DNA of 44,537 nt, taken from an uncultured delta proteobacterium. GTDB lineage: Bacteria; Desulfobacterota; WTBG01; CAIYCZ01. Location: positions 1 through 44,537 of the forward strand of contig CAWDOY010000052.1 in NCBI GenBank assembly GCA_963803975.1, read 5' to 3'. This document shows positions 49 through 18,834 of the stretch, in pieces. Numbering within the stretch: position 1 is the stretch's first letter; every line of letters starts with the position of its first letter. A model generated the notes under the pieces. It saw nothing but the letters and a program-made list of their open reading frames with translations. It had not been told where the DNA came from and did not search any database. The position numbers and the translations under genes were made by a program.

Positions 49-3000
49 ATGATGAAAAAACTATGGCTGATTCTATTTTGTTTAAGTATAGCACTGTGCT
101 TTGCTCATTCCAGCTATGCATATGAAAACGTTCAGGATTGTTTAACATGCCACCCTGAAGGGGCATTTGGTGCAGCAACACCTCCTCAACTGCATGGCAT
201 AAGTGCTCATACAGCCAACTGTGCAAATTGTCATCCTGGTGGCGTACCTGGACAGAATGTAACACCGAGTTCCTGTATAGTATGTCATCCGGCAGGGAAC
301 CTGGACTCTGTGCTCTCATCAATGCGCAGCCATCCCATGGCAATTCATGTCTGTCATGTCATTCTGAATGTACTCCACCAAGCACTACTACCACAATACC
401 AACCGGTACTACTACAATACCAGCAAGCACTACTACCACCACACCTGCCGGCACTACTACAACTACAATGATAATACCTGGAGGCACTTCTGCTCTCACA
501 TTAAGTGATATGGCGCTGCCGTGCGCTCTTTTGGCGCATCAGCAGTCATGCCGATACTCTGACCAACACAGCCGGTGCAGCACCCAATATTGCCGGTGTG
601 AGCACGGACATCACGTTTGATGACAGTTATTTAGATTTCACCGGCGCAACCGTCGGGCCGGCCGGCTCAGCAGTGGGTAAAACTGTTTCATTCAACCTGC
701 TGTCACCCGGCGTGGTGCGTGTCGGCGTATTTACCGAAGGCAACACCACCCCCATCGGCGATGGCGTAGTGGCCTATGTAAATTTCACGATAAAGAAGAA
801 CCCGGTAGGCGGCGTAGACCTGACCAACCTGTGCAGCGCATCTGACCCGGCAGGAAACGCGTTGGGGATCGCCTGCGTGTCAGGCAGTTTCTTTACTGCC
901 AAGACCGCTGACTTTAACCTGGACGGCGTAACGTCCATTAACGAAATACTGATGGAAGTGAGAATGTTTCTGGGGATAGACCCGGTCGATCCCTTAGGTG
1001 ATCCAACCGCAGACAACAAGGTTTCGATTGATGATGTGATCAAGGCCATCAACTGCTTCTTAGAGACCAAGGAATGTGCCTGCCCCACGGTTGACGTGAT
1101 ACCCCAGGAAGAGCTGTGGAAGGAATCCGGCCATGCAGACACTACCGCGATGGCCTTCAACGACTGGAATGAATGTACTCCTGTACCCCCAGCCACTACC
1201 TGTACCCCAGCGGTTCCTGTCGGCTGTGCCAAGTGCCACAGCACCCCGGGCTACCTTGACTACCTGGGCGCAGACGGCACCGCAGCCGGCGTGGTAGATA
1301 ACCCGGCACCGATTGGCACGGTCGTCTCCTGCGAGGCATGTCATAATCAGAAGGCAAGCTGAGCTGACCAGCGTGGTGCTGGAGTCCACCGGTGATACCG
1401 GAGCGGTTCCCCCGATTGCCAAGATTACGCTCACGGGCCTTGGTAAAGAAGCGCGCTGCATGGTATGCCATCAGGGTCGCGCATCAACGGATACCGTGAA
1501 TATATACATTGGAGGCAGACCGCTACTGGCAGGAGACCCTGATGCGGTGGATAGCGGCGCATCGTTTAGGAACATCCACTACTTTGCAGCAGCAGCAACC
1601 CTGTACGGCAACCAGGCAAAGGGCGGCTACCAGTATAGCGGCAAGGTCTATGATGCCAAGTTTGCCCACGTGGAAGGCTATGACACCTGCATCACCTGTC
1701 ATGACGCGCATTCTCTGGAACTCAAGTATGACAAGTGCGTAACCTGCCATACCGGCGCCACGGACAAGGCAGCCCTGAAGAATATCCGCATGAAGGGCTC
1801 TCTGGAAGACTATGACGGCGACGGCAACATAACCGAAGGTCTCTACTATGAAGTAGACGGCCTCAGAGCCAAGCTGTATCAGGCTATCCAGGCATATGCT
1901 ACAAACGTGTCAGGTAAAGGCATTGTGTACAATCCGGCAGCAAACCCCTACTGGTTTGTTGATGACAATGGCAATGGTGTGGCAGATCCAGCTGAAGTCA
2001 CCCGGTACAATGCCTATACCGCGCGCCTGCTGAAGGCGACCTACAACTACCAGGTATCAACCAAGGATCCTGGTTCCTATGCGCACAATGGCAAATATAT
2101 CATCGAGCTGCTGTATGACTCGATCGAAGACCTGAACGCAAAGCTCTCCACCCTGGTACCATCAGCAGACGTGAGCCTTGCCGGCTGCAACCGGGTAGAT
2201 GAAGGCCATTTCAACGGTGCTTCCGAGGCCTGGAGACACTGGGATGTAGCAACTGCTCCGGCACTGCCAGGGCCTCCGGGTTCCTGCGCCAAGTGTCATG
2301 CAGGCCAAGGGCATCCCGTTCTTCCTGACCAACAATGTCAACATCCAGGAAGAGCCGGCTAACGGCATGCTGTGCTTGAACTGCCACACCAGTGTAACCG
2401 ACACGGTTGCACCGCGCCGTGCAGTGAAAGACGTAACCTTCCCCTCAGGGTTAAAAGCCAATATGGGTGGTGCAGGGGCAACTGACGACAGCAACCTGTG
2501 TCTGCTCTGTCACCAGGGCCGCGAGTCCAAGGTGAGCGTAGATACCAAGATTGCAGGTAGCGCCGGCCCGTACTCTTTCACCAATGTGCACTATTACGCA
2601 GCAGCAGCATCGCTGTTTGGCACGCAGGTGCAGGGCGGCTACGAGTACGCGGGCAAGACCTATGCCGGTCAGAACCCGTTCACTGCTCACGGCGGCAAGT
2701 TCAATAAGTGCGTGCAGTGTCATATGGGCAGTGACGGCCTGAATGCGTCGTACGCGTCGCACCGGGTAACCAAGCCCAACCCGAACAACTGCGTATGTCA
2801 CGCTGGTGATGTGTCGCAGACCGGCACCTTTGAATTCGCTAACATTCGCCCGGCCACAGGATTTGGCAGCACTGACTTTGACGGTGACGGCAATGTGACC
2901 GAGTCGATAAAGAGCGAGATCGAAGGGCTGGAAGATACTGTATACGCAGATTCGGGCGTACTCAGCCAATCCGGCAGGCTTCAACAAATTCATTGCCTAT

Positions 3001-3241
3001 GATGGCGCTGCGTACCCGTACTGGTTTGAGGATCCCAACAACAACGGTATCCATGATGCTGGTGAAGCAACATCCTTCACGAAGTTTGATGCAGCGTTGT
3101 TGAAGGCAGCCTACAACTACCAGTTCAGCAAGAAGGAGCCGTGTGGCTTTGTTCACAACTCGCTGTACGTTGCGCCAGTGTTTAGCTGACTCTACCATAG
3201 ATAGTCGGCGGCACCGTGCCGAACACGGTATCTGGAGGTAA
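49..3241 (+). CDS. Large secreted multiheme c-type cytochrome (~14 hemes) with Thr/Pro linker, cohesin-like and dockerin-like domains; reconstructed across several frameshifts
   Basis: Signal peptide MKKLWLILFCLSIALCFAHSSYA; 13 CxxCH motifs plus one CxCH across ORFs 49-471, 228-620, 505-1362, 1313-2362, 2298-3002 and the tail YDGAAYPYWFED...KAAYNYQF ending near TAA 3239-3241; internal duplication; terminator follows. Confidence 0.8.
375..470 (+). repeat. ACT/ACC-rich low-complexity stretch encoding a Thr/Pro linker
   Basis: PPSTTTTIPTGTTTIPASTTTTTPAGTTTTT in ORF 228-620; repeated cactactacca units. Confidence 0.8.
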
Positions 3242-3423: not shown

Positions 3424-3464
3424 TTGACATGATTGGGCAATTGGTATACTCACCAGGTAAGTTA
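3424..3464 (+). promoter_or_regulatory. Putative sigma70 promoter with overlapping TetR-type operator
   Basis: TTGACA 3424-3429 and TATACT 3445-3450 (15-nt spacer, short); ACTCACC-A-GGTAAGT imperfect palindrome overlapping the -10. Confidence 0.45.
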
Positions 3465-3480
3465 CCTTTGTGGAGGCAGT

Positions 3481-4077
3481 ATGGCAGAAGCAGCAGTAAA
3501 GGAAAATCGCAAGGAAGTCATTTTTGATGCAGCATTGAAATGCTTCAACAAAAACGGCTACTACAAGACCTCCATGGATTTGATTGCAGAAAGCGCGGGC
3601 ATGACCAAGCGCGGCCTGTACTATCATTTCAAATCAAAAGACGAGCTCTTTATCAATCTGTTCAATTACATGAATGACCATTTTTATGAACAGATACCCC
3701 CCGATGCCGCGCACATCAAGGACCCGGAGGAGCGGCTCATGCTGTTTGTTAAAATTGCCCGCACCGTGCTTGCCGAGCATGCTGATTTTCTGAAATTTTC
3801 CCAGGAGTTCATGTCCATCGGCATGCGCAAGCCCAAAATCAGAAAAGTAATGACCTCTTATTACAAAGAGCAGGTTGAGAAAGTAAGCAGGACCATTGAG
3901 CAGGCTGTGACCATGGGCAAGTTTATGAATGTCGATCCCCTTAAAATGGCGCGCGCCATCGTGCTGATGACCATGGGGGCATTCAATGTTTATTTTTGTC
4001 TGGATGCTGATTTTAACCTTGCTGACCAGCACTCATTTGATATTGAACAGATACTTCGCTGTCTAAAAAAGCAGTAA
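3481..4077 (+). CDS. TetR/AcrR family transcriptional regulator
   Basis: IFDAALKCFNKNGYYKTSMDLIAESAGMTKRGLYYHFKSKDELF HTH; GGAGG RBS before ATG 3481. Confidence 0.92.
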   Translation: MAEAAVKENRKEVIFDAALKCFNKNGYYKTSMDLIAESAGMTKRGLYYHFKSKDELFINLFNYMNDHFYEQIPPDAAHIKDPEERLMLFVKIARTVLAEHADFLKFSQEFMSIGMRKPKIRKVMTSYYKEQVEKVSRTIEQAVTMGKFMNVDPLKMARAIVLMTMGAFNVYFCLDADFNLADQHSFDIEQILRCLKKQ

Positions 4078-4187
4078 GAGTGATGCGTGGCCAGTCGATA
4101 GAAGTGAAACGTTTAAGTGAACCGTGGTTGCTCCTGCGGTGAGCTTGTCGAAGGGTCAGCTGACAGCTAATAACTAATGGAGTCCAC

Positions 4188-6059
4188 ATGAAAGCCGCTT
4201 CCGAAAAGATGATCGTTGTTGATTTGACCAGGGAGAAAATCAAGATCGTGCCGATGCGCAGCGACCTTGAACGTGACTACATGGGCGGCGAGGGAACGGG
4301 AACGCGGCTTGTCTGGGAAATGGTTCCAGCGGGCATTCACCCGCTTGAGCCGAAGAACACCATTGTTTTTGCCGCTGCCCCGCTCAACGGGACAATTTTT
4401 CCGGCCGGGCCGCGCGGCACCATTGTATTCAAGTCACCGGAAACGGGAACGATCTCCATGACCAATATCGGCGGGAGCTGGGCAGCGCGCCTGAAAATGG
4501 CCGGGTACGCCCTGTTGGCGGTGACCGGCAGCGCAAAAAAACCGGTCTACCTTTTTATTGATGATGACAAGGTTGAAATTCGCGACGCCCGCAAGCTCTG
4601 GGGTAAGACCATCCCTGACATGCAGCAGATGATCCGCGATGAGCTTGGCGACGGAAAAATCGAGGTGGTGGGCATCGGCCCAGCGGGGGAGAACCTGGTG
4701 CGCTTTTCCAATATCGCAAACAACATCCGCTTTGCCGGCAAGGGCGGCAGCGGTGCGGTTATGGGCGCAAAAAAATTGAAAGCGATTGCGATCAGGGGCA
4801 CGGGCACGGTCCACTGCAGCGACATCTGGTGGCTGCGGGAAATAAGCTTTGAGATTATGAAGGCCATGGAGCAGAGCCCGCCCATTCAGATGCTTAAAAC
4901 CGGCAGCTCTGCCGCGTTCAATCAGGCCGTGGCCGAACTTCAGGACTTCGGCTACAAGCATTTTCAGGAGGGCGGGTTCAAGAACGGGCATAAGCTCTAT
5001 ATCGAAAACATCAAACGCAATGTCGATCAGGAACACCGCGCCTGTTATACCTGCCCCATCGGCTGCGGGGTCATGTCAAAGGTGACCAAAGGCAAATTCA
5101 AGGGCACTGAAAGCAGCGGACCCATGGCCGAGGCATACTGGAACTGGGGGTGGAAGTGCGGCATCACCGACATAGGCGCTATCATAAAAATTGCAAAGCT
5201 GTGCAATGAAAACGGCGTGTGCGTCAACTCAGCGTCTGAACCCATTGCCTGGGTCATGGAGTGCCAGGAGAAGAATCTACTCTCAACCGAGGAGACGGGC
5301 TTGCGCGTGAAATGGGGCGACGGCCCTGCATCGGTAAAACTCGTGGAGATGATCATCGCGCGCAAGGGGTTCGGCAGCGTGCTGGCTGAAGGCGTCAAGA
5401 AGGCCGCGGAGATGGTCGGCACCAATACCGAGGAACTTGCCATGCATGTCAAGGGCATGGAGCTCGACGGGGATGAGTGGCGGCAGAACAAGGCTTCGGC
5501 TTTGACTGCCGCGACATCCGAGCGGGGGGCCTCGGTGGTGCGGCCGTGGGGTTTCCCCATCGACATGGGTATGCTCTTCCCGGAAGTTACCGGGCTGAAA
5601 GAGAAACCCGACCCGGACAAGGAAGAGGGCATCGCCGCATGGTACAAACCCTACAAGGAATTCACCGTCGCCTCCAACTGCATGGGCATCTGCCTGTACC
5701 CGGGACTGTTCAATATTCCCAGCCCGCAGCAGACGCTCGACGCTTTCAAGGCGATAACAGGCAGAGCTTTGAGCCTGAAAGATTACCTGAAGATCGGCGA
5801 GCGCACGGTGTGCGTGCAGCGCGCGTTCAATGCCCGGGAGGGATTCACCCGCAAGGATGATACGCTTCCCAAGCGGATACTTAATGAACCCATAAAAGGA
5901 GGCAGGTATGACGGCAGGCGCATTAGAAATTTTGATGCCATGCTTGATGACTATTACAAAGAGTCAGGATTTGATAAGAAAACCGGCTGGCCGACACGCG
6001 CTAAGCTGAAAGAGCTGAACCTGCAGGATGTGGCAGATGTGTTGTATAAGAGGGGGTAG
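4188..6059 (+). CDS. aor: Aldehyde:ferredoxin oxidoreductase (tungsten AOR family)
   Basis: KSPETG, CIGPAGEN-like GIGPAGENLVRF, GSGAVMGAKKLKAIA, CYTCPIGC, LAEG, HVKGME, FNAREG..DDTLPKR motifs. Confidence 0.92.
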   Translation: MKAASEKMIVVDLTREKIKIVPMRSDLERDYMGGEGTGTRLVWEMVPAGIHPLEPKNTIVFAAAPLNGTIFPAGPRGTIVFKSPETGTISMTNIGGSWAARLKMAGYALLAVTGSAKKPVYLFIDDDKVEIRDARKLWGKTIPDMQQMIRDELGDGKIEVVGIGPAGENLVRFSNIANNIRFAGKGGSGAVMGAKKLKAIAIRGTGTVHCSDIWWLREISFEIMKAMEQSPPIQMLKTGSSAAFNQAVAELQDFGYKHFQEGGFKNGHKLYIENIKRNVDQEHRACYTCPIGCGVMSKVTKGKFKGTESSGPMAEAYWNWGWKCGITDIGAIIKIAKLCNENGVCVNSASEPIAWVMECQEKNLLSTEETGLRVKWGDGPASVKLVEMIIARKGFGSVLAEGVKKAAEMVGTNTEELAMHVKGMELDGDEWRQNKASALTAATSERGASVVRPWGFPIDMGMLFPEVTGLKEKPDPDKEEGIAAWYKPYKEFTVASNCMGICLYPGLFNIPSPQQTLDAFKAITGRALSLKDYLKIGERTVCVQRAFNAREGFTRKDDTLPKRILNEPIKGGRYDGRRIRNFDAMLDDYYKESGFDKKTGWPTRAKLKELNLQDVADVLYKRG

Positions 6060-6313
6060 GGGCTGGGGATTCGGGAAATTAGGGAACAATAAGAATTGCG
6101 GATGAAAGGCATAAGGCAACCTACCTTCGCGCGAGGCTGATCGTGACACGCAGGCACAAAGGAAATGCTGAGTGCAGAGCAACCCGAGAGCCACGCATAC
6201 ACGCTGTCCGCCTACCGAAGACACTTCGTGCGGAGGGCAGGCAGTGCTACGGAGGACGGGTGCCCTCTGTGGTTATGTTTTTAACATACGATAATCGGGC
6301 GGAGAACTAACCA

Positions 6314-7914
6314 ATGAAAGACAGCTATGACGTAATTATCATCGGTGCCGGCATGGGCGGGCTCACCTGTGGTGCATGGCTTACGCACATGGGAATGAAG
6401 GTTCTTGTGCTTGAGCAGAATACACAGGTGGGCGGCTGCTGCTCAAGCTATAAGCGCGAAGGATTCAACTTCACTCCTGCCGCATCCATCATAACCGGTA
6501 CCACAAAAAAAGACGGCGTGTTCGAGCGGCTGATAAACAGGCTGGGCATCACCATTCCATTCATTCCGCTTAATCAGGGCTATCATGTACATTTGCCGGA
6601 CTTTGACTATTACCTTTACTCAGGCGGCGAGCACGCGCGCGACCAGCTGATCGAGCAGCTCATGCGGATTTTCCCCCATGAGGCGCAGGGCATTAAGGCT
6701 TTTTTTGCAAAACTGGGAAAGCTCTATGCGGAGATGGAGTATGCCACTTTCTTCGGCACCGGTCCGCGGGATATTGCCCGCATTCTGCTGAAGTGCCGGA
6801 CACTGCTCTTCAACATGGGCAAGGGAATCCTGCCGTTTGTGGACGACTTTGTTAAAGACCCGAAACTCAAAACCGTTCTGTCTATCAACTCAACCTGCTG
6901 CAACCTCCCGCCGTCACGGATGTCAGTGCTCGGGATCGCCGGCCTGCTGCTCGAGGGCGGGCTCTCAAATCCCCATGTGAAGGGCGGCGCGATTGCAGTG
7001 CCTGAAGCTTTTGCTCAATACATCCGCAGCAAAGGGGGCGATGTTGTGCTTGGCACGCAGGCGGAAAAGATTGTTACGGATAACGGTACTGCAACCGGCG
7101 TCCGCGCAATAAAATCCCCGCTTGCTCAGGAACAGGGATATAGCCAGGGCATAGCAGATATCCGGGAATTCAAAGCAAAATACATTGTTTCCAACGCTGC
7201 TGCCCGGCAGACGTTCATGAAACTTGTCGGCGCTGATAAACTTCCTGACAAGTTTACCAGCATGCTTGGCCGCCAGGAGCCAACCCCGCCATTCTGCGCG
7301 CTGCTTCCTCGGGCTCGATATGGATTTAAAGAGCATGGGGATTTATTCCCGCCCTGCATATTTACAGCTCAACCTATGATACTGATGAGCAGTTCAGAAA
7401 TGTCGAGGCAAAGATTTTAAGTGAAAACGGTCCGGCCCCGTTTTTCCGGTTCCAGCTTGCACCGTTAAGCGATCCAACCTCCGCCCCGCAGGGCAAGACC
7501 GCGCTGGTTATCCATGCGATACCTGCTCCCGTTACCGGCTGGGAAAATCCGGATTTTGAGAAAAAGGTTGCTGATGTCATGATCAGACGGGCGGAAAAAA
7601 TAATCCCCGGACTTTCTCAGAAAGATCATGTACCGGAATTCTGGTCACCAGCTACCATGAACAAATACCTGATGTGCGGGGCTGACGCGAGCATGGGCTG
7701 GGCGCTCACGCCGCAGCAGGTGGGGCCGAAACGGCTGGCGCAGAAGACACCAATTAAAAATCTGCTCTTGAGCGGCCACTGGACCGCGCCGGCAGTGGGC
7801 GTGATGTCAACCGTGGTATCCGGACTGCAGGCGTCAGGGATGATACTGAGGTCAGAGGGAGTGAAAGAGCCTCTTGCGGATATCGGCATCAGGCAGGGAG
7901 TTGTGATGTCGTGA
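6314..7914 (+). CDS. Phytoene desaturase / retinol-saturase-like FAD-dependent oxidoreductase (frameshifted near 7300 and 7620)
   Basis: YDVIIIGAGMGGLTCGAWL..VLEQNTQVGGCCSSYKREGF; SDPTSAPQGK in the middle frame; C-terminal KTPIKNLLLSGHWTAP.GV..V.SG. Confidence 0.8.
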
Positions 7915-7983
7915 TAACCAGGATTGCGGCAGCTCGTCAAAAGACGTAAGGCTTTACTAACAACTACATAACAGGGGGTTACA

Positions 7984-9385
7984 ATGAGGCCAAATCAAAA
8001 AAACAGGCAGCGTGATGACAGCACCATTGACAGCAGCAGGAGAGGTTTTTTAAAGACCCTTGGTATTACAACCGCTGGCTTAACGACTCTTGGTCTGACC
8101 GATGGCTTCACAGCCACTGCGCAATCGCAAACCGGTTTGAAAGCCCTTGCCGGCGGGCCGGGTAATTTCATGGATGAGTGGTACTGGCTCAAGGTGCGCA
8201 TGCAGTTTGTTTTAAAGCCTGATTTAATTTATTTAAACACCGGTACCGAGGGCGCGATGCCCCGGATTGTTCTGGATAAAATGCGCGATTATTTCAGGCA
8301 GTTTGCCGCCTTCCCGTATGATGCCATCGTAAACGACCCATGTTTGGGCGCAGGGTTGAGCAGGGAGATTGAGGCCCTTGCTGCATTTTTTGGCGCTGAT
8401 AAGGAAGAAATTGTCATAACCACTAATACCACCGAGGGCCTGGGCTGGGTTTCCAACGGTCTGGAGCTGGCAGAGGGTGATGAAGTGCTTTCCACCACCC
8501 AGTTCCGGCCTTACAGCTCCTGCTGGCAGGTGCTGATAGACAGAAAAAAAATTACCCTTACCGAGGTTGAGCTGCCCATTAAACCATCAAACAAGCAGGA
8601 GATCATTGACCTCTTTGAAAAAGCCATAACCCCCCGGACAAAAGTAATGACCTTCTGCCATATTAATTATACCAACGGGCTGCGCATGCCGGTCAGAGAG
8701 CTCTGTGACCTGGCCAGACAGAATGGTATTATAACGCTGGTAGACGGCGCCCATGCTCCGGGGATGCTGATCTTTGACCTGCATGAACTCGGGTGTGATT
8801 TTTACGCCGGCTCACTGCACAAATGGCTGTGCGGCCCTCCCGGGACCGGGGTCTTATACCTGCGCAAGGATATGCAGCACCTGCCTGTGGCCCACCGAGT
8901 GCGAGACATATACGGCAGGAGCAGGGACTATAATAAATTGTGAAAAATTCAATGGGCGCGGCCAGCTGATAACCCCGGCGATTGCAACACTGCTGGATGC
9001 GATGGATTTCCAGAATACTATCGGGAGAGATACCATCCAGAAACGGATTCTTGCCTTAAATAAGTACTGCAAAGAGAGGATCATAGACGAATGGGGCCCG
9101 GAAAAACTTTTATCGCCTGCAGCGGATAATGAAGATTTGTGCACCGGCCTTGTTGCTTTCAATCCGTTTGAAACACCCTATGCAACGCAGCCTAATAAAA
9201 TAAGTGCGGTTTACAAGGCGCTGTATAAGAAAAAAATAGCGGTAAGAACTATCGGGTATAAGGAAAAACATGCGGATGAAAAACCCATTTCAGCGCTGCG
9301 CATTTCAACGCACCTCTATAATAACTACGAACAGATTGACACCGCGATAGAGGAAGTAAAAGAGATTATCAAGACACTGCAATAA
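7984..9385 (+). CDS. Tat-exported PLP-dependent aminotransferase class V (CefD/C-DES/EgtE-like C-S lyase family); frameshift near 8885
   Basis: Twin-arginine SRRGFLKTLG; YLNTGTEG, TTNTTEG, DGAHAPG, GSLHKWLCGPPGTG (PLP Lys), RISTHLYN. Confidence 0.85.
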
Positions 9386-9415
9386 ACAACCACAGTGTTA
9401 AGAAAGGAGATATGC

Positions 9416-10234
9416 ATGAAGCGAACATCACGGACGATACTGTTTGCAGCGGTTCTGCTGCTGGCTGCCGGTACCCTGGGCGGCTGTCTGTCGGAGGACC
9501 AGCTTATTACCTATGATGAGCTGAAGGCCCTGATTGACGACAATGCCGCCATGGAAAACACAACCATTGTAGATGTGCGGTCAGTTGCGGCATGGAAGGA
9601 AGGATATATACCGGAGGCTATTAATATTGAATATGATGCGGTGCTTGACGCCTTCGGCGGCCTAAAAGACGGCGGAGCAGCGCTCACTTCAATCGTTACC
9701 AATAAAGACGGCACACTGGTCATTTATGGAACGGGTACTGATAATGCTTCGCTGTTTGCCGCACGGGCCATCCAATCAGGTTATACGGATGTAAAGTTCT
9801 ATCAGGGAGGAATGGCCGACTGGCGGGAGAGCCACGGGGACTATTTGTATATAAACTATGAGGGATTCAGACAGTGGTATGATGCCGCGTGCCCTTTCAC
9901 AGACGGAGAGAACTATCTGGTCGATGCGCATCCCCCGAGCCTGTACACGGATTACGGCCATATCCCGGGCGCCATCAATATCATGAGCAAGCATTTTACC
10001 TTTCTTGACCCCGGCAGCTTAAAGCCGATAACGGATTTTATTTCCAACAGGGAAGCAAAGATTGTCTTTTATTGCGTTAACTATACCTGACCGGCAAGCC
10101 GCAAATCGGCACGTGATGCCGTATCGCTTGGCTATACCAAAGCCTATTCTTTTGTCGGCGGCTGCCAGGATTGGAAGGCAGAAGGAAACACGCTGTATCA
10201 GGGAGAGGATAAAGGCTCCTGCGCTGAAAAATAG
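9416..10234 (+). CDS. Tandem rhodanese-domain lipoprotein, predicted selenoprotein (TGA 10088-10090 = Sec, motif YCVNYTU)
   Basis: AGGAGA RBS; lipobox LGGC; two rhodanese domains; the frame continues past TGA as PASRKSARDAVSLGYTKAYSFVGGCQDWKAEG, completing the second rhodanese fold, to TAG 10232-10234. Confidence 0.85.
10095..10130 (+). promoter_or_regulatory. Candidate bacterial SECIS element for TGA 10088
   Basis: Upper stem CGGCA-(CGTGA)-TGCCG at 10107-10121, lower stem CAAGC/GCTTG; loop begins about 21 nt after the UGA and has G at its second position. Confidence 0.65.
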
Positions 10235-10269
10235 TTGATCCCATGTACCACAGATATGGAGAGAGAGCT

Positions 10270-11593
10270 GTGCATAGCTTCTATATTTTAATGGTGTGCC
10301 TGCTGTTGCTTATCCCTGCCTGCAAGCCGGTCCCGCAGGACACTCTGACGCTGCTCTACACCAGCGACACAACAGGGGAGATTGAGCCCTGCGGTTGAAA
10401 CTCAAACCCTTTAGGGGGGCTTGCCCGGCGGGCAAGCTATATTAAATCCGCGCGGCAGTCAGAAAAAAATGTTCTGCTGCTTGATGCCGGCAATGTTTTC
10501 GGCTATCCCGGCGTGCAGTCACGCCTGAAGAGTGAAACTGCCGTGGAAGCCATGTCCCTGATGTCCTATGCGGCGCTCAATATCAGCAACCTTGAGTTCA
10601 GCTTTGGCCTTGATTTCCTTCGTGATACCACACAAAAGTTTCAGATACCAACCCTCAGCGCCAATATTGTCTATGAAGACACCAATGAACCAATAACAGA
10701 AGCAGCCCGTATTATTTCATTCGATACTTTCACGGTGGGCATCACCGGAGTTGTCGGAAAAAAATATGAAAAAATCATTCTGCAATCCAATGCGGAAAAT
10801 GCCCGGCCGGTAAACGTGCTTGATGAAATGACCGCACTCCAGCAGCAGGTTGATGCCATCAGAGGCGCTGTTGACATACTCATAGTTCTTGCCAATGCGG
10901 GCGTGGAGCGCGCCAAAGAAATCGCACAGCAGATATCGGGGATTGATGTCATCGTCTGCGGGCACGGCGCTGATGAAATAAAGGCGCCCTACTTTATCAA
11001 TGGCGTGTACGTCGTTAAGGCAGGCTACGATGGGACCAGCATCGGAAAGCTGGCGCTCTCTCTTGACCGGAACAATAAAATTATCGACGCGCAGGGAGAA
11101 GTCGTCACCCTCGAGAAAGATATTGACGAGGACCAGGAGATGCTCGGACTTCTTGACGCCTACCATAAGAGCCTGAAGGAGCACGCCGACGAGCTGTTCA
11201 CCGGCGAACAGAAGCCGCCGTCTTCCGGCGGCTCATATGCGGGTTCGGCCCAATGTGCAGGCTGCCATCCAGAGCCAGGCGCAGCAGTGGAACACTACCG
11301 GCCATGCGCAAGCCTTCAGCTCCCTTATCGTAAAAAACCAGGATTATAATCCGGAGTGCGTAATCTGCCACGTGACCGGATTTGGTTATACGGGCGGCTT
11401 CAAGCGGCCGGATCAAAGCCAGGACCGGGCCAATGTTCAGTGCGAAATGTGTCATGGGGCCGGAGCGGAGCACGCGGCACAGCCGGCTCCCGGTTATGGC
11501 GCGATTTCAGCGCTTATCTGTATAAACTGCCACACCAGCGACAAGAGCCCGAACTTTGATTACGCAACGTACTACCCGAAGATCAAACATTAA
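10270..11593 (+). CDS. UshA/5'-nucleotidase-fold lipoprotein fused to a C-terminal tetraheme cytochrome c; predicted selenoprotein (TGA 10396-10398, motif EPCGU); frameshift near 11270
   Basis: GGAG RBS before GTG 10270 (alternative ATG 10243); lipobox IPAC; LLYTSDTTGEIEPCG-U-NSNPLGGLARRASYI...LLLDAGN in frame with ORF 10513; hemes CAGCH, CVICH, CEMCH, CINCH. Confidence 0.85.
10419..10437 (+). promoter_or_regulatory. Candidate bacterial SECIS element for TGA 10396
   Basis: Perfect hairpin GCTTGCCC-GGC-GGGCAAGC with G-starting loop about 28 nt after the UGA. Confidence 0.65.
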
Positions 11594-11663
11594 CTGCAGG
11601 TACATATAGTACATTTTATCGGCTAAATGACCGGGCTTTTGATTTTAGAAAGGGGGATTGTAC

Positions 11664-12771
11664 GTGAAAACAATAAAAACAATTTTACAAGTGAGCATTT
11701 TCCTTCCTGTTGTTCTTCTTGCAGGCTGCTCTGATGAGGTGACGCGATAAAATTGCTGCTGTTATTCATGACAAAGTTCTAACCGTCGATACCCATGTTG
11801 ATACGCCGCTGCTGCTGGTATCTGAAAATTTTGACCTGGGTATGCGGCATGAACCTAAAAAGATTATTTATAAACTGGATTTACCCCGCATGGAGGAAGG
11901 GGGGCTTGATGCGGTGTTCTTTGCCATTTTTGTCTTTCAGGGCCCTCGAACTCCTGAAGGCAATGAAAAGGCAAAGCAGAATGCCTTGAAAACCTTTACT
12001 GCCATTAAAGACAGTCTCGATCAAAATGCTGATGCCGCAGAACTGGCGCTGACGCCGGATGATGCCTACCGGCTGCAGCGGGATAAAAGGCGGGCAATAT
12101 TTATCGGCATGGAAAATGGGTATCCGGTCGGCACAGATCTCTCCCTTATACAGACCTATTATGAACTGGGTGCCCGGTATATTACCCTGTGCCACTGGGC
12201 AAACAATGATATCTGCGATGCCGCCACTGACCCGGCTGGCCCTGAGCATAACGGCTTGAGTGAATTTGGCAAACAGGTTGTTGCAGAAATGAACCGCCTG
12301 GGAATGATGGTTGATATCTCACACGTCTCCGACAAAACAGTGCTTGATGTGCTGGAGATGTCCACAGCGCCCATAATTGCCTCGCATTCGAGCGCACGCG
12401 CTGTCTATGAACACCCCCGAAACCTGCCTGATGAACTCCTGAAAAAGATTGCCGACAAGGGTGGTGTGGTGCAGGCAACCATAGAGTATGTGAAAGCTCA
12501 TGCCTCATATGAACGTCCGGAGCTTCCCACGGTGGCAGAGTTTGTTGACCATATTGATCATATTGTTCAGGTTGCAGGGATTGACCATGTGGGCATCGGC
12601 ACTGATTTTGACGGCGGCGGAGAGCTTGCGGACTGCTATGATGTGAGCGAAATGGGAAACATCACCCGCGAACTGGTAAAGCGGGGCTACACGGCTGCGC
12701 AGATAGAGAAGATCTGGGGCGGCAACCTGATGCGGGTATTCAAAAATGTTCAGGAGGCGGCAGAAAAATAA
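11664..12771 (+). CDS. Membrane (renal-type, M19) dipeptidase lipoprotein; frameshift near 11745
   Basis: GTG 11664 with signal and lipobox VLLAGC; VDTHVDTP, GMENG, ITLCHWANN, MMVDISHVS, ASHS, HPRN, HVGIGTDFDGG, IWGGNLMRV. Confidence 0.88.
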
Positions 12772-13140
12772 CAAGGAACGAGCAAGTCGCAAAAGTTTTA
12801 AGCTGAAGAAGTATATTCAAGAAGTAGCTACATAATCATAAACCAATACAATTCGGACTTAGTTTTAACCTGACCAGGAAAGACATTCTTCTGATAATGT
12901 TAAGCGCTTACCAATTGTCCAAATAGCAATAACCTTCACTGGCAATAAAAATTCAAAGCTCAAGAATCATAGCCGCATGTTGCACTTTTTGTAGACGGTA
13001 AAATTGCTGCTTTCTTAATAAAGTGTTGAATTGTTTAAGCAGTGAGAATTGTTGCGCTTATAAACAGAAGCTGCAACTTTTTCTGATAATGGCCCACCAC
13101 AAGATGTAGGTGCAAAAAAGCAAGGCCATTGATGGCTAGC

Positions 13141-14470
13141 GGTGTATGAAAATGTCTGTGTAATACTGGATTAGATAAAGAAACTCAATCCATTAAACAG
13201 GAGGACTACACATGCCAATCAAAGACGAATCGTGCTTGATGAATTACTGAAGGAGTATAAAAATCCGGAAGACCTCATTGGGAAAGACGGCATACTGAAA
13301 CAGCTCACCAAACGTCTGGTAGAAAAGGCGATGGAATCGGAGCTGACCCACCATCTGGGCTATGACAAGAACAGCCCTGCCGGCAACAACACGGGCAATT
13401 CCCGTAACGGTAAATCCTCAAAAACCATCAAAGGTGATTTTGGCGAAATCCCCATAACGGTCCCCCGGGATCGCAACGGGGAGTTCAACCTCCAGATCAT
13501 AAAGAAGAACCAGACGCGTTTTGATGGTTTTGACGATAAAATCATTTCCATGTATGCCCGTGGGATGACCACCCGCGACATTCAGGCCCATCTGCAGGAC
13601 ATCTACGGTGTTGAGGTATCCCCCGACCTCATATCCAATGTCACTGATGCAGTTATCAACGAGGTCAAGGAATGGCAAAATCGCCCCCTGGCAGACATAT
13701 ATCCCATTCTGTATCTTGATGCCACGATAGTAAAAGTCCGCAGCGAGGGCCGTGTTATTAACAAAAGCGCTTATCTTGCTGTCGGCATAACGCTGGATGG
13801 CACCAAAGACGTGCTGGGCATCTGGCTTGAGCAGACCGAAGGAGCCAAGTTCTGGCTGAAGGTTATGACGGAATTAAAGAACCGGGGTGTGCAGGACATC
13901 TATATCGCCTGTGTCGATGGATTAAAGGGCTTCCCTGATGCCATAGAGGCCATGTTCCCTAAAACCGAGGTGCAGCTCTGCATCGTGCATATGGTCCGGA
14001 ACAGTTTACGGTTTGTCTCCTGGAAGGACCGCAAAAACGTTGCTGCCGATCTCAAGGCTGTTTACCAGGCTGCTACCGAAGAGCAAGCTCGGATGCGCCT
14101 TTCTGCATTTGCTCAGAAGTGGGACGCAAAGTATCCCACCATCGCAAAGTCATGGGAAGCAAACTGGCAGCGCCTGATTCCGTTTTTTGCCTACTCCGAG
14201 GAAATCAGGCGAATTATCTATACAACAAATGCCATCGAGTCATTGAACAACTCACTGAAAAAGACTATAAAAAACAGGGCTTCGTTCCCCAATGACGAGG
14301 CCGCTATAAAGCTTTTGTATTTGTGCCTTGAAAAATATTATGAAAAAATGGACAATGCCAGTACGAAATCTGGGGCACGGCTCTGAATCAGCTGGCGGTA
14401 CGTATATGCTGACCGGATGCCCATTTAATGAGCAACGGGAATTATCATTTACACGGAATCTCGATACTTT
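13141..14470 (+). mobile_element. IS256-family insertion sequence
   Basis: Transposase flanked by imperfect inverted ends GTATGAAAATGTCTGTGTAA (13144-13163) and TTACACGGAATCTCGATAC (14449-14467). Confidence 0.85.
13212..14428 (+). CDS. IS256 (Mutator) family transposase, frameshifted at both ends
   Basis: RNGKSSKT, VPRDRNGEF, YLDA, VDGLKGFPDAI, QLCIVHMVRNS, IYTTNAIESLN; RBS GGAGGA before ATG 13212. Confidence 0.92.
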
Positions 14471-14627: not shown

Positions 14628-16559
14628 ATGAACCAGGTACGCAATTTTGCAATAATCACTTTTTTCCTCTTGTTCGGTATTGTGAGCGCTATTCCGCTGG
14701 CTATCGCTGCTGATCCGTGCAACTTAACTGTTAGCCAGGGAGGGGCGCAGAAAGAAATTATAGACACTGACTGTGACGGTCTGCCTGATACAGCCTGCGC
14801 TGACTGCACGCCCTCTTATCCAAAGGCTGACAACTGCCCGTATATACAAAATGCAAATAGTAAAGGGACATGCACTGCCGGCACAAAAATCGGAGAACTA
14901 TGTACCGGCAATACTGAATGCGGCTTTGGCGGTTTCTGCAGCATGAACCAGGAGGATGCGGACGAAGACGGGTCCGGCGATGCCTGCGACTACTGCGCAG
15001 GCACCGGCGGCTTTGATAAGGATGCTGACGGCATCTGTGACGGGGAAGACAACTGTCCCACCGTTCCCAACCCGGATCAGAATGACAATGTCTGCCTCAA
15101 TAAAATAGAGAAGTTTGCACCGGTTGGTATTTTTAAGGGCAGCTGGTATGACATCGGGCGGCAGGTCGGCCAGGCTTTCCCGGACAGCATTATCGATTTC
15201 AGCAACACCATGAGGCTCGTCATTACTTTTGTCGGCCCCGGCCATGGCTGGACAGCACAGAAGTATTATGATGCAGTTCAAGATTTCATCCCGCAGAGCG
15301 CAAAGGACCATATGCAGGGCATGGCAGCAGGCCTGGCAGATGTCAGGCCGATGAGCTACGATACTGCCTGGGATATGGTAATAACCCTCAATATGGCCAC
15401 AGAGCTGCTTAACATGGACAACATGTCGTCCATCCCTGATGCCCCTGCATACGAGCTGCGCGGCTGCACCGGGTTTGCTGTTTCTTCAGCTGCCGGGACA
15501 TTTTTTGGCCACAACACTGATGCACAAAGCATGGTCAACGGCAGTGCAATTATGTATTTTGAGCCGGATAACGGTGATTATTCCTATATCAGCATAGACC
15601 CTCCGGGCTGGGTATTTGTGGGTTACGGTCTTAATGAAAAGGGAATAGCCGTCACCACCAATGCCGGCAGCCCAAGCCCTGATGCATTAATGGGCCTGGA
15701 CCCAAACCTGATGCTGCGCACCGTCATGGAACATGCCGCAACGCTGGAGGAGGCGGTTGACCTTTTTCAGGATTTCCTCTCAAGCGGGAAAAACTTTGGC
15801 ACTGGCGGGGCAATTATTCACATTGTGGATTTCAACCAGTCCACCATGGCAAAAATCCAGGTCCGCTCAAAGGTGATAGAGGTAACCTACGGGCAGCAGT
15901 CGCCGTACGGGGTTGATTATATCGGTTCGGCCAATCATTTTGTGGGCGATTTTAATGTTGATCCGGATTATTATTACGAATCTTCATGGAAGCGTTATGA
16001 ACGATTAATGCAGCTGTTAAATCAAATGCAAACCTTTGACATGCAAGCCTGCTGGACGGTGCTCAGCGATACCAGTCAGGAAAAACCCAATAACAACATA
16101 TCGCGCACCGGCGGCTTTGGTCAGAGCGTCACTCAGTTTGGCACTATTTTTACCAGGGATGGGATGTATTATACCCTGCAGGCGCCGCACCGGTACTTTG
16201 CAGAATATGACGACGCCGCAGTTCCTGAGCTTTCCCTCAGGGCGGGGATACCCTTGCAACATGCAGCGCTGCTCCCCGGTTCCGCAAGGTGATTCTCAGC
16301 TGGACAACAGCATCTGAGGCTGATATTGCCGGTTTTAACCTGTACCGTTTGGAAGCAAAGGGCGGCAAGGCACTAAAGATCAATGCTGCGCTGATTCCGG
16401 TAAAGGGAGCGGGACAGGCGTATGAAGTTACTGATACTAATGTAACGAACAGAAAGACCTACTATTACCGGCTTGAAAGCGTTGACAAGAACGGCGCAAC
16501 AACGCTGCTTGATATAATGAGCGCAACACCACGGCTGTTTATTCTGGCTCGGAAAGTAG
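14628..16559 (+). CDS. Secreted C45-family (Ntn-hydrolase) peptidase/acyltransferase with N-terminal thrombospondin type-3 repeats and a C-terminal FN3-like domain (frameshifts near 16220-16290 and 16540)
   Basis: Signal peptide; DADEDGSGDACD and DNCPTVPNPDQ repeats; G/CTGFAV autocleavage site, GHNTD, GLNEKGIAV, SANHF; tail LSWTTASEADIAGFNLYR...YYYRLESVD...ATPRLLFWLGK* after removing one T. Confidence 0.75.
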
Positions 16560-16586
16560 CAGGACGTATTGGTCGGCAATTACAAA

Positions 16587-16613
16587 AAGGCGGAGTTATA
16601 GAAACTCCGCCTT
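16587..16613 (+). terminator. Intrinsic terminator
   Basis: AAGGCGGAGTT / AACTCCGCCTT stem followed by CTTT. Confidence 0.75.
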
Positions 16614-16705
16614 CTTTATAAAAACATCGCACCGGTAAACACGGATGGGCTGAAATTCTGAACAGAACCGCGAATAAAACAATACGGAAACGGAGGTTGT
16701 AATCA

Positions 16706-18028
16706 ATGGCACATTTTGATGTTGCGATTGTTGGGGCCGGTCCGGCCGGCCTTGGCGCATGTCTTAAGGCTGCCTCCCTGGGGCTGAAGGTGGCGCTCAT
16801 TGAGCGCAGAAGCAGGCTATCCCCGATTACGCGTGCCTGTTCCGAAGGGCTTCTCTACGAAGAGCCGTATAACGGGGACGCGATACGCGTCAACAGGGAA
16901 AAAGGCCGTATCGAGTTTATGAACTCAGGCTTTTCTCTGCGCTACACCGGCCCCATACGAGAGGTGCCTTATTTTGCCAACATCTCATACCGCGGCAACC
17001 GGATGAAAATCGTGCGGGATGACGGCAAACCGATTCACCTGGTGATTGATAAGGGAAGGTACCTGGAAGAGAATCTTGAAGATGCAGTCAGGGCCGGTGT
17101 CTCATACTTCCCGGACCGGACTGTTGTTGATCTTGACAATTCACAACAGGGTATTGTCATCCAGACGGATAAAGGCAGTTTTACATCCCGGTATTTGATA
17201 GCAGCAGACGGCCACAACTCAGTCTGTGCACGCATTGCCGGGTTTAATCTTGAGCGGCAGTTTTACGGAACCCTCACCGGTGCCTGCTGGCATATTCAGG
17301 GGGCGACACCGGAAGATGCGGCACATATCCATCTGCTCGAGGGAAAAGATAACCCGTCTGTTTTCTGCATGTGCCCGCGGGTGGATGATGGAGAGTTCAG
17401 CGTTATGATATCCGGATTTTCTCCTGATCCGCATTATGCTGAACGGTTTGAGCAGGTTAAACATAATTCTGTCCTGTCTCCCATTTTTAAACAGGGGGTT
17501 ACCGTGAAGAGGATGCTTGCCTGCGTTCTGAATCTTTTTCACCCGCTTAACAACCCGTGCCGGGATAATATATTTGTAGTCGGTGATGCTGCCTGGCTCG
17601 GCCAGACCAGCAACTCCCACGCGGCCCTCACCGGCGCCAGGGCAGCAGAGTGCATCGGCGATGCTTTGCAGAACCAATGTAGTGCTGATGAAGCATACCG
17701 GCACTACCATGCCTGGTGGGAGGAAAATTATCTCAATTACGCAAAGGTGCCGGGCGGCGGAAACATTTTTGATGAGCTCACCAGGGATGAAATAGATGAA
17801 CTCTTTTCCTACATGCCTGCTGAAATCCCGGGCTCCATGGAGCCCCGCAAGGCAAAGCAGCTCATGGCCGCGTTTTTTCAGAAGCTTATCCCGGAAATTC
17901 AGCAGAAGAACCCCGCACTGGTGCAGCGGATAATGTCAATACAGCAGAAAACTGTTGATGATGCCTGGGCTGAAAAACGCCGGCAGGGTATTCCGGTGAG
18001 ACAAAAGCTCAGGAAAGAAATGGCATGA
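16706..18028 (+). CDS. Geranylgeranyl-reductase-like NAD(P)/FAD-dependent oxidoreductase
   Basis: FDVAIVGAGPAG, LIAADGHNS, FVVGDAA; CGGAGG RBS. Confidence 0.8.
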   Translation: MAHFDVAIVGAGPAGLGACLKAASLGLKVALIERRSRLSPITRACSEGLLYEEPYNGDAIRVNREKGRIEFMNSGFSLRYTGPIREVPYFANISYRGNRMKIVRDDGKPIHLVIDKGRYLEENLEDAVRAGVSYFPDRTVVDLDNSQQGIVIQTDKGSFTSRYLIAADGHNSVCARIAGFNLERQFYGTLTGACWHIQGATPEDAAHIHLLEGKDNPSVFCMCPRVDDGEFSVMISGFSPDPHYAERFEQVKHNSVLSPIFKQGVTVKRMLACVLNLFHPLNNPCRDNIFVVGDAAWLGQTSNSHAALTGARAAECIGDALQNQCSADEAYRHYHAWWEENYLNYAKVPGGGNIFDELTRDEIDELFSYMPAEIPGSMEPRKAKQLMAAFFQKLIPEIQQKNPALVQRIMSIQQKTVDDAWAEKRRQGIPVRQKLRKEMA

Positions 18029-18834
18029 CAAAAGTCAGAAGCACCCATATATGTGTTGAAAAACGTCCCTGCCTTCATATCAGCAACGGCATCCCCTCTC
18101 CGTCTGCCGTAACCATGATCCATGAAACCCCCGTGGAGCTACGGATCAACGGGCACCGGCTTATCCGCACCCAGTGCATGGCCCATGAAATAGAGCAGAT
18201 GGCTGTGGGCTTCATGGTATGCGAAGGCCTTCTAAAGAAGCGTTCCGAGCTGAAGCAGGTAGAGGCTGACGCAGCCGCAGGGGTTGTCAATGTTGTTGCA
18301 GACATTCCCCGGGAACGGATTACCTTGGCCGGTGCGCACACCCGCCTTGCTTCAGGCGGCAGCAAGACCGGGGTTATTGATCTTGTGCAGGAGAAGGTTG
18401 CCGGCGGCTTCAGCATAGCATCAAAAAAGACCATCGATGCCGTCCACCTGATCAGCCTTGGCAATGAGTTTAACAATTTTGCCGGGCTGTACCGTGACAG
18501 CCGTTTTGTGCACTCGGCAGCTCTTTCTGACGGGAGCACCATGCTTCGTCATTGTGAAGATGTAGGCAGGCATAATGCCGTGGACAAGGTGCTGGGTTAT
18601 GGCTTTATGGAAGGGCTGCAGTTTGACGGGCTGGTATTGCTTTGTTCAGGACGCTTCTCCCTTGAGATGGTATCAAAGGTTGCCTGCGTAGGAATTTCCA
18701 TCTATATTTCACCCGCTGCGCCAAGCGTTGAGGCGGTGGAACTTGCCGAGCGCATTGGTATGACCCTGTGCGGCAGGGTAAAAAGAGACACCGCGAACCT
18801 TTACTCCTGTCCCTGGCGGGTCACCGGCCGCTAG
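18025..18834 (+). CDS. fdhD: Formate dehydrogenase accessory sulfurtransferase FdhD family
   Basis: ETPVELRING, AVGFMVCEG, VHSAAL, EDVGRHNAVDKVLG, SGRFSLEMVSK. Confidence 0.88.
   Translation: MTKVRSTHICVEKRPCLHISNGIPSPSAVTMIHETPVELRINGHRLIRTQCMAHEIEQMAVGFMVCEGLLKKRSELKQVEADAAAGVVNVVADIPRERITLAGAHTRLASGGSKTGVIDLVQEKVAGGFSIASKKTIDAVHLISLGNEFNNFAGLYRDSRFVHSAALSDGSTMLRHCEDVGRHNAVDKVLGYGFMEGLQFDGLVLLCSGRFSLEMVSKVACVGISIYISPAAPSVEAVELAERIGMTLCGRVKRDTANLYSCPWRVTGR

Follow-up and report, generated by a model that had tools for sequence, protein, structure and literature searches.

What might four neighbouring genes, all apparently encoding exported proteins and two of them carrying an in-frame TGA codon, do together at the cell envelope of an uncultured delta proteobacterium? 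The genes lie on the + strand, at positions 7984-12771 of a contig of 44,537 nucleotides (NCBI GenBank assembly GCA_963803975.1, contig CAWDOY010000052.1), the whole of which we call the window. In order, they encode a class V enzyme dependent on pyridoxal 5'-phosphate (PLP), a rhodanese, an UshA-like protein with a tetrahaem domain, and an M19 dipeptidase. A sequence-only reading of the window had proposed a periplasmic relay for sulfur or selenium at this locus. We found that the gene order recurs in another bacterial family, and alignments support both TGAs as selenocysteine (Sec) codons. To judge from its genes, the cluster probably handles sulfur or selenium outside the cytoplasm. More tentatively, and with slightly less than even confidence, we propose that it may join a haem-wired Cys/Sec chalcogen redox pair to a module that acts on peptides or cysteine conjugates.

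The four genes and their two selenocysteine codons

The sequence-only reading had described four close, co-directional genes with gaps of about 30-70 nucleotides (nt), and this description stands. The gaps are 30, 35 and 70 nt, the second becoming 8 nt if ATG 10243 is taken as the start of the UshA-like gene, and a Shine-Dalgarno-like purine run lies ahead of each of the four start codons. No terminator-like site was found between the four cluster genes. A terminator-like hairpin is present at 6246-6273, ahead of a gene for a CrtI-family flavin adenine dinucleotide (FAD) oxidoreductase (6314-7914, + strand, with several frame breaks that split it into at least two open reading frames). This CrtI-like gene lies immediately upstream of the cluster, and transcription of the unit probably begins with it. 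In our proposal the locus is a putative single transcription unit whose modules face the periplasm. Contigs of an RNA run overlap the PLP, rhodanese and UshA-like genes in part; expression of these three genes is therefore possible, but such contigs cannot demonstrate one shared transcript.

Export signals were read from the sequence by eye. They agree with the earlier claim that all four proteins are exported, one by a twin-arginine translocation (Tat) signal and three by lipoboxes. The Tat motif SRRGFLK (8035-8055) is at the N-terminus of the PLP enzyme. Lipobox-like motifs are found in the rhodanese (L-G-G-C, 9476-9487), the UshA-like protein (I-P-A-C, 10312-10323) and the M19 dipeptidase (L-A-G-C, 11718-11729).

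The UshA-like lipoprotein (10270-11593) ends in a c554-like tetrahaem domain (Cytochrome_C554, E = 4.9e-13). Its gene probably starts at GTG 10270, because the extension to ATG 10243 contains stop codons in two closely related metagenome contigs, L149 and L152. The family model NF041198 (UshA_like_PCGU) matches it at 2.5e-60 (model positions 5-274) and at 4e-28 (model positions 418-519), one match for each half of a gene that is frame-split in the window. For the gene as split in the window, the bit scores are 204.6 and 98.3, or 183 and 95.8 when the genome was searched, against a cut-off of 275; neither half reaches the cut-off alone, and their rough sum exceeds it. The features that define the family, a P-C-G-U/C motif and a C-terminal tetrahaem domain, are both present: a PCGU motif lies at 10387-10398, and four CxxCH motifs (CAGCH 11254-11268, CVICH 11357-11371, CEMCH 11441-11455 and CINCH 11519-11533) fall on the haem part, which the second model match covers. 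The protein itself does not differ from the described family, which has the same PCGU near the N-terminus, the 5'-nucleotidase fold, the c554-like tetrahaem C-terminus and export.

When the UshA-like domain was aligned to 5'-nucleotidases and SoxB, DxH was found to be replaced by D-T-T, GD by D-A-G-N and GNHE by S-N-L-E-F. We take DxH, GD and GNHE to be the dimetal ligand motifs of metallophosphoesterases. Later His positions of the domain vary among orthologues. Because the metal-ligand motifs are lost, we rejected a function as a 5'-nucleotidase or as SoxB and suggest that the domain is no phosphoesterase. Its conserved new feature is Cys-Gly-Sec, which is followed by the c554-like tetrahaem domain.

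The Sec codon of the PCGU motif is the TGA at 10396-10398. A TGA stands at the same column in four orthologues (from genomes G008, G016, G039 and G009) and in all six metagenome contigs that reach the site, and in the orthologue alignment the protein is conserved in frame past it. A centroid fold predicts a hairpin like a selenocysteine insertion sequence (SECIS) at 10418-10438, GCUUGCCC-GGC-GGGCAAGC, which begins 22 nt after the UGA. The consensus hairpin of five UshA-like orthologues has a 9-bp stem and a GGC or GGA loop, with compensatory changes in 4 of 12 predicted pairs. We relied on this alignment fold rather than on single-sequence folds, which gave weak z-scores. A Cys-form (C-G-C) UshA-like tetrahaem paralogue of 477 residues is encoded elsewhere in the source genome (G000:C23:35426-36673, - strand); it scores above the NF041198 cut-off and adjoins dapB, a neighbourhood that recurs in the related loci L049 and L053.

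The rhodanese (9416-10234) is a two-domain lipoprotein of 272 residues in which the Rhodanese family (PF00581) matches two stretches (2.3e-30). In the N-terminal domain, the active-site position is not occupied by a Cys. The second domain has a Cys at the start of its active-site loop, Y-C-V-N-Y-T-U (10070-10090), as expected of a family member. Alignment to the solved rhodaneses 6mxv and 3o3w places Cys220 at their catalytic Cys, and the in-frame TGA (10088-10090) encodes position 225, five residues later. Thus, the earlier description of a Sec-rhodanese is supported as far as the Sec codon goes, but the canonical catalytic position is taken by Cys220, with Sec at +5. The same spacing, as C-x4-C, is found in the solved protein BH2092, and the family motif in an alignment of orthologues and database proteins is Cys-x4-Sec/Cys. 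The TGA is retained in G008 and in seven of seven close metagenome contigs. Cys takes the place of Sec in G009, in the contigs L156-L160 (37-42% identity) and in the full-length database proteins P0024, P0026, P0028 and P0029. Downstream of the TGA, in-frame conservation among orthologues extends over 46 residues. About 23 database clusters (built at 90% identity; 60-98% identical to the window protein) stop at residue 223-227, just before Sec, which we ascribe to gene callers stopping at the TGA. A possible SECIS hairpin with a 5-bp stem and a CGUGA loop (10107-10121) was found by eye and is weak; at the corresponding register of the G008 gene the hairpin is stronger.

Sec machinery, which the sequence-only reading had proposed to look for, is present in the genome: there is a tRNA-Sec, selA, selB and a selD that itself contains a TGA. 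All the features that we expected of a bacterial selenoprotein gene (a Sec/Cys column, conservation downstream, a hairpin and the machinery) were found for both TGAs, the rhodanese hairpin being weak when taken alone. A search of the window with Rfam at the gathering score returned one tRNA only and no SECIS family. We take both TGAs as Sec codons because of the TGA/Cys columns, the in-frame conservation, the UshA-like hairpin and the Sec machinery, and this predicted reading is well supported. The earlier claim of two adjacent selenoproteins has therefore held up, but it is less novel than was implied, because both families are already catalogued. The UshA-like family is listed as 'COG0737, UshA-like, CxU' in the Global Ocean Sampling (GOS) selenoproteome of 2008, where it is among the more frequent selenoprotein families (PMC2398784), and it also appears in reviews of 2022 (PMC9312934) and 2026 (PMC13188914). 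Sec-containing rhodaneses are catalogued in the same two reviews (PMC9312934, PMC13188914).

The rhodanese does not belong to either of two family models that it matches. Its best NCBIfam match is TsoB (NF045694), at 63.7 of 805 bits, and rhodanese_LYCAU (NF041203) gives 49.8 of 115 bits. TsoB has Sec-x4-Sec (UxxxxU) where the window protein has Cys-x4-Sec, so that a second chalcogen residue stands at the same spacing in both. Unlike TsoB, the window rhodanese is a two-domain lipoprotein without a DsbD-like membrane domain.

The PLP enzyme (7984-9385; Aminotran_5, 1.4e-34) resembles PvdN in its location but does not belong to the PvdN family. R19, R20 and K24 of its Tat motif are invariant across seven orthologues and paralogues, as are H279 and K280; the latter lies in SLHKW (8812-8826), which aligns to the 'hkw'/'hk' motif of PvdN and SufS and contains the presumed PLP-binding lysine. 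Its NCBIfam matches are the SufS subfamily (5.3e-31) and PvdN (5.3e-29), both far below the cut-off. It reaches 107.9 of 475 bits against SufS, which places it outside the SufS/CsdA/IscS group, and 101.1 of 650 bits against the PvdN model NF051467, in spite of its Tat motif. With the intact G008 orthologue as query, the nearest solved relatives are PvdN (1.1e-35), SufS (2.1e-26) and C-DES (7.8e-23). Since the enzyme has a Tat motif and PvdN as its best solved relative, but scores below the PvdN cut-off, we call it PvdN-like.

When the G008 orthologue was aligned to Bacillus subtilis SufS, no Cys was found on the catalytic loop. The C-terminal loop of SufS carries its catalytic Cys, and the corresponding window sequence, 'VRTIGYKEKHADEK', by eye likewise has none. 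The sequence-only reading had likened the enzyme to C-DES-type class V lyases. The SufS Cys is missing, as in C-DES, but PvdN is the closer relative (1.1e-35 against 7.8e-23). The window enzyme shares the class V PLP fold with the cysteine desulfurase/selenocysteine lyase SufS/CsdB and with C-DES of Synechocystis, and with the latter also the lack of a Cys on the SufS loop. However, C-DES and SufS/CsdB are cytoplasmic, whereas the window enzyme has a Tat signal, and C-DES scores below PvdN. PvdN itself is a Tat-exported class V PLP enzyme without the desulfurase Cys, like the window enzyme. Tat-PLP paralogues are found in other settings. At L081 (G016:C3), one lies beside an FGE-sulfatase/MopE-motif (PvdO-like) protein and FAD oxidoreductases, and at L083 (G009:C13) and L084 (G006:C8) they precede a small unknown open reading frame (ORF) and then a TonB-dependent receptor.

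The M19 lipoprotein (11664-12771) matches Peptidase_M19 at 4.1e-103 and 345 bits against a cut-off of 26. Its motifs HxD 11794, E 12106, H 12313, H 12379 and D 12601 align with Sco3058 (3id7) and 2rag; we take these five to be the M19 zinc ligands. From the domain match and the zinc-site motifs it is predicted to be an active, zinc-competent dipeptidase. GliJ, a fungal M19 dipeptidase that acts on Cys-Gly conjugates, is among its solved relatives, and in the processing of glutathione conjugates it is established that a PLP C-S lyase acts after an M19 dipeptidase. PvdM, an M19-like periplasmic protein of the PvdN pathway, has lost four of five zinc ligands (PMC9305348). The two systems are alike in that an M19 fold at the periplasmic face is encoded with a PvdN-type enzyme. 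However, PvdM is non-hydrolytic and without a zinc site (PMC9305348), while the window protein keeps all the ligand motifs and is not of the PvdM type, and there are no pyoverdine genes at the window locus.

Occurrence of the cluster and the state of its reading frames

Genomes were surveyed at one genome per species. A single UshA-like protein used as query found one distant locus; queries built from alignments worked better. The full cluster was found in the same gene order in one other species, G008, which belongs to the same taxonomic order as the source but to a different family and whose proteins are 42-61% identical to those of the window. Seven metagenome contigs carry a Sec-rhodanese that is 75-98% identical, and three of them (L149, L152 and L155) hold the four genes in order; the remaining four are cut at their ends, yet carry the expected neighbours. 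Co-occurrence elsewhere had been named as a check on the sequence-only reading. It is borne out by G008 and the three complete contigs, and this recurrence outside the source lineage is what we looked for in a conserved four-gene operon. The operon was found in a few uncultured freshwater-sediment bacteria.

The genes tend to travel as two pairs. The rhodanese and UshA-like genes are paired in all three genomes with a window-type rhodanese (G000, G008 and G009) and in six of the seven close metagenome contigs, the seventh ending inside the rhodanese gene. The PLP and M19 genes are paired in G000, G003 and G008. G003, a member of the same family as the source, has a syntenic series that runs from a TetR regulator, an aldehyde:ferredoxin oxidoreductase (AOR) and the CrtI-like gene to PLP, M19 and a peptidase C45 gene, with PLP adjoining M19. 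G009 has a Cys-form rhodanese, two multihaem cytochromes and a Sec-form UshA-like gene, with a 4Fe-4S protein upstream. Because each pair occurs alone elsewhere, we consider the cluster to be two nested modules. Orthologues of the PLP enzyme occur in 6 of 21 genomes of the taxonomic order, and those of the M19 dipeptidase in 5 of 401 sampled genomes of the phylum (E<=1e-60).

Of 24 listed sequencing runs, 20, from 15 studies, contain some or all of the stretch; most are labelled as freshwater or sediment metagenomes, which suggests that the lineage is widespread. These matches are close relatives and not independent evidence on function.

Additional genes stand within some copies of the cluster. 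An ORF of about 300 residues lies between the PLP and rhodanese genes at L152:5079-5912 and L154:1-983, and has paralogues on contigs C26 and C35 of the source genome. Its VEAGTGPG stretch resembled a methyltransferase motif; there was no Pfam match, and we dropped the idea. In G008, a 408-residue protein with WGSS...VFAVG...GTILHYDG repeats and one in-frame TGA is encoded between the rhodanese and UshA-like genes (L036:2748-3974, - strand). Its family is expanded in the source genome (C38, C15, C1, C48 and others) and has no Pfam match. We left this protein and two unknown G003 ORFs out of our model because they belong to multi-copy families or to no Pfam family.

The earlier description named four genes and all four exist, but it missed that three of them are frame-broken in this assembly. 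There are +1 breaks in the PLP (8883/8884), UshA-like (11269-11272) and M19 (11743) genes. The PLP gene is read in frame 1 to the break and in frame 2 from 8885 to the stop; the M19 gene has its signal peptide in frame 3 (from GTG 11664) and its body in frame 1 (11746-12771). We compared positions 6200-13300 with contigs of X1, X2 and X4, DNA metagenome runs that each come from a different study, and of an RNA run (X19). The contigs of X1, X2 and X4 have one base fewer at 8883/8884 and at 11743, and those of X1, X2, X4 and X19 have one base fewer at 11269/11272, the only site at which X19 was readable. Bins of X19 lacking RNA cover, and small word shares in other runs, were given no weight as evidence. 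Removing the extra base restores the frame at each of the three sites. In the CrtI-like gene a base is left out at 6309 (X1, X2), at 7303 and 7341 (X1, X2, X4) and at 7619 (one X4 contig), and two further single-base differences from the metagenome contigs lie at 13230 and 13232. In the contig L149, whose rhodanese is 98% identical, all four genes are intact and the junctions read as predicted (...DMQHLLWPTE... and ...CSDEVSDKIAAV...); the PLP gene is intact in L155 as well. The natural population thus carries intact cluster genes.

The rpoC gene is intact (1394 residues), and we therefore rejected a uniform assembly error as the full explanation of the breaks. Statistics of ORF coverage did not single out this contig and so have no bearing on the frameshifts. 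In the source genome, selA lies in two ORFs (G000:C20:69584-70952, - strand; model positions 1-49 and 53-453) and is a single frame in five of five relatives; the split is probably another single-base error or mutation.

A proposed role and its rivals

Based on this gene anatomy, we propose a model with two modules, in which the chemistry of each step, the way the electrons flow and the link between the modules are conjectural. Module B would consist of the Cys-x4-Sec rhodanese lipoprotein and the UshA-like lipoprotein, and could act as a chalcogen oxidoreductase that is wired to haems and has a carrier of its own. The rhodanese may bind sulfane sulfur (or selenium), forming a Cys-S-X-Se-Sec or a persulfide adduct, and hand this adduct to the Cys-Gly-Sec site of the UshA-like protein. 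The four haems might then reduce or oxidise the S-S or S-Se bond, with other cytochromes of the periplasm as partners in electron exchange. Module A, made up of the zinc-competent M19 dipeptidase and the Tat-exported PvdN-like PLP enzyme, would have a peptide or cysteine conjugate as its substrate. In lineages in which module B lies inside it, module A probably delivers or takes away, in amino-acid-bound form, the very sulfur or selenium that B handles. Module B is nested inside module A in the source genome, in its close relatives and in G008. The nested, conserved order argues that A may feed B, and the separate occurrence of the modules argues against an obligate link.

Parts of this model have precedents. 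In Wolinella, Sud is a periplasmic rhodanese-type carrier that passes sulfane sulfur to polysulfide reductase; there the reductase is a molybdoenzyme and there is no Sec. MccSep (ExtKL) of Geobacter sulfurreducens is a multihaem selenoprotein that was shown in August 2026 to reduce polysulfide and selenite (PMC13510729). It is described as a polysulfide reductase of sulfur respiration with a proposed Sec-Se-(S/Se)-S-Cys intermediate that is reduced by the haems (PMC13510729), and its gene cluster also encodes a rhodanese-like lipoprotein, ExtH (PMC5877670, PMC6148476). Both loci combine a Cys/Sec pair, haems and a rhodanese lipoprotein outside the cytoplasm. MccSep differs in having five haems, one of them ligated by the Cys, whereas the window protein has four haems and carries Cys-Gly-Sec on a separate domain of 5'-nucleotidase fold. 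The MccSep model NF040886 was not among the NCBIfam matches of either UshA-like half at E<=0.01. Furthermore, the window rhodanese is itself a selenoprotein, and no porin or ExtJ-like gene was seen at the locus, unlike in the MccSep cluster.

Several observations weigh against our proposal. The likeness to MccSep is one of logic and not of homology. The single-sequence fold statistics are weak for both hairpins: the z-score downstream of the UshA-like TGA is -1.19, and the rhodanese hairpin is not the minimum-energy fold and has a z-score of -0.44. Three cluster genes are frameshifted in the window while rpoC is intact, so this strain may have lost the activity of the cluster. The cluster is also rare. 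All four genes were found at 1 of 31 UshA-like loci, an UshA-like gene at 2 of 57 rhodanese loci, and, among 23 PLP loci, M19 at 2 and the rhodanese and UshA-like genes at 1. Neighbours of the wider UshA-like family are varied and include Tol-Pal-like genes with tsaD, dapB and cytochrome b fusions. No UshA-like gene was found within 4 kb downstream of the Cys-form rhodanese (37-42% identity) on L156; the other four contigs of this group reach at most 1.5 kb past the rhodanese match on one or both sides. The PLP, rhodanese and M19 genes were all not found in G001, a 91% complete genome of the same genus, so the gene set is dispensable. G003 has neither the rhodanese nor the UshA-like gene despite having selA, and for this reason loss of the Sec trait was rejected as the explanation. 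Finally, G009 has no PLP or M19 gene near its rhodanese and UshA-like genes, and no M19 match at E<=1e-60 was found anywhere in its genome.

The last two genomes also bear on the rival that we consider the most serious, although it is somewhat improbable: that two unrelated periplasmic modules share an operon by history and pass no substrate between them. The PLP, M19, C45, AOR and FAD enzymes would then degrade or recycle a peptide-like compound, and the redox pair would have been inserted or retained among them. G003 keeps the one module and G009 the other, as this account would have it. Other genes appear to be tolerated in the cluster, as the 408-residue protein of G008 and the ORF of about 300 residues in L152 and L154 indicate, and an AOR-like gene adjoins a 45-48% identical M19 relative in G074. 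Against this, all the complete close contigs keep the nested order with its short gaps, and so do lineages whose proteins are 42-61% identical. Had the insertion been neutral, one would not expect it to stay in one piece through such divergence. At the other extreme, the sequence-only reading tied all four proteins into one relay. It had the M19 dipeptidase cleave Cys-Gly or cystinyl-bis-glycine, a C-DES-type PLP lyase make a persulfide, and the Sec-rhodanese carry this to the CxU protein, whose haems connect to respiration; selenocystine as substrate would give a selenium-scavenging version. The zinc-competent M19 dipeptidase with GliJ among its solved relatives, the PLP enzyme without the SufS Cys and with C-DES among its own, the co-occurrence of the genes and the Sec machinery all fit this scheme. 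However, PvdN and SufS outscore C-DES, the PLP paralogues stand beside TonB receptors, a PvdO-like protein and FAD oxidoreductases and not beside sulfur genes, and the modules are found apart, and we regard the relay as quite unlikely in either version. We give a similarly low probability to a related scheme, in which sulfur or selenium would be stripped in the periplasm from cysteinyl or selenocysteinyl peptides or glutathione-type conjugates, by way of the dipeptidase, a Cys-less PLP beta-lyase, the Cys-x4-Sec rhodanese and finally Cys-Gly-Sec and the haems. If true, the periplasm would be the site at which sulfane sulfur or selenium bound in organic form is respired or assimilated, and the widespread UshA-like selenoprotein family would have its first function.

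The same PLP paralogues, with their TonB receptors (G009 and G006), FGE/PvdO-like protein (G016) and FAD oxidoreductases, keep alive a reading in which the cluster tailors or salvages a peptide metabolite, as in pyoverdine maturation, with the rhodanese and haem selenoprotein oxidising that metabolite or modifying its thiols. Among solved proteins PvdN is closest to the PLP enzyme, and it is also the second NCBIfam match, PvdM is an M19-like protein of the PvdN pathway (PMC9305348), and a C45 acyl-hydrolase-like gene lies downstream. Yet the PvdN model gives only 101 of 650 bits, and the window M19 keeps the zinc ligands of which PvdM lost four of five (PMC9305348). Pfam scans of the larger ORFs in 505-30072 found no TonB receptor or exporter, NRPS (non-ribosomal peptide synthetase) genes not having been searched for. 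This makes a tailoring role improbable in our view. A different kind of doubt concerns the strain itself, where the cluster could be a decaying remnant with true frameshifts beside an IS256 insertion, non-functional here. About ten single-base length differences lie within 6.2-13.3 kb, three of them inside the cluster; no extra base is in a homopolymer run, the intact rpoC argues that the assembly is not uniformly error-ridden, and the IS256 element right after the M19 gene is found only in this genome. But in 11 of the 12 length differences listed it is the window that has the extra base, which points to a systematic consensus error rather than to a mutation spectrum. Moreover, the selenoproteins of this genome depend on selA, a gene that is likewise split here and whole in all five relatives, and L149 has every gene intact. 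Decay is thus hardly a probable explanation, and we favour a local consensus error as the cause of the frame breaks.

The entries on the UshA-like CxU family in the 2008, 2022 and 2026 articles report no tested function for it (PMC2398784, PMC9312934, PMC13188914). The pairing with a Sec-rhodanese, PLP enzyme and M19 dipeptidase does not appear in the tables of these articles, and the section on operons in the 2026 review (PMC13188914) does not list it either. The sequence-only reading knew of no such periplasmic pathway, and our literature search, with supplementary files outside its scope, likewise found no paper on the pathway or on the four-gene arrangement. The component families are known, and what appears to be new is their combination. 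The locus would represent a second haem-plus-Sec protein, unrelated to MccSep, with a dedicated Sec-rhodanese partner and, in a few lineages, with a dipeptidase and a PLP enzyme around it. It offers the family testable partners and candidate substrates, namely polysulfide, persulfides, selenite and cysteine conjugates. If the modules are coupled, they would be a new way for sediment bacteria to process organic sulfur or selenium at their cell envelope.

Flanking genes

The cluster lies in a conserved neighbourhood. Upstream, the synteny of the CrtI-like gene is kept in G003, L149, L152 and L155. Downstream, an AAT/peptidase C45 (N-terminal nucleophile hydrolase) domain with a TSP3 repeat is encoded at 14628-16292 (+ strand; PF03417, 3.6e-20) in a protein that is possibly exported. 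This C45/AAT gene follows the M19 gene in G003, L154 and L155 and is the conserved downstream neighbour. In the window, an IS256-family transposase gene (13232-14386, + strand; NF033543, 3.5e-130) stands between the two. It is absent from this position in G003 and L155, where the C45/AAT gene comes directly after M19, and the IS256 element is not part of the system.

Further out, the conserved upstream flank at 3433-6059 encodes the TetR regulator and the AOR, which is of the tungsten type. The conserved downstream flank at 14628-18834 encodes the C45/AAT protein with TSP3, an FAD-dependent oxidoreductase and FdhD. At the upstream end, the ORFs at 1313-2362 and 2298-3002 overlap in different frames and both match Cytochrome_C7; 1313-3002 may be one frame-broken multihaem gene.

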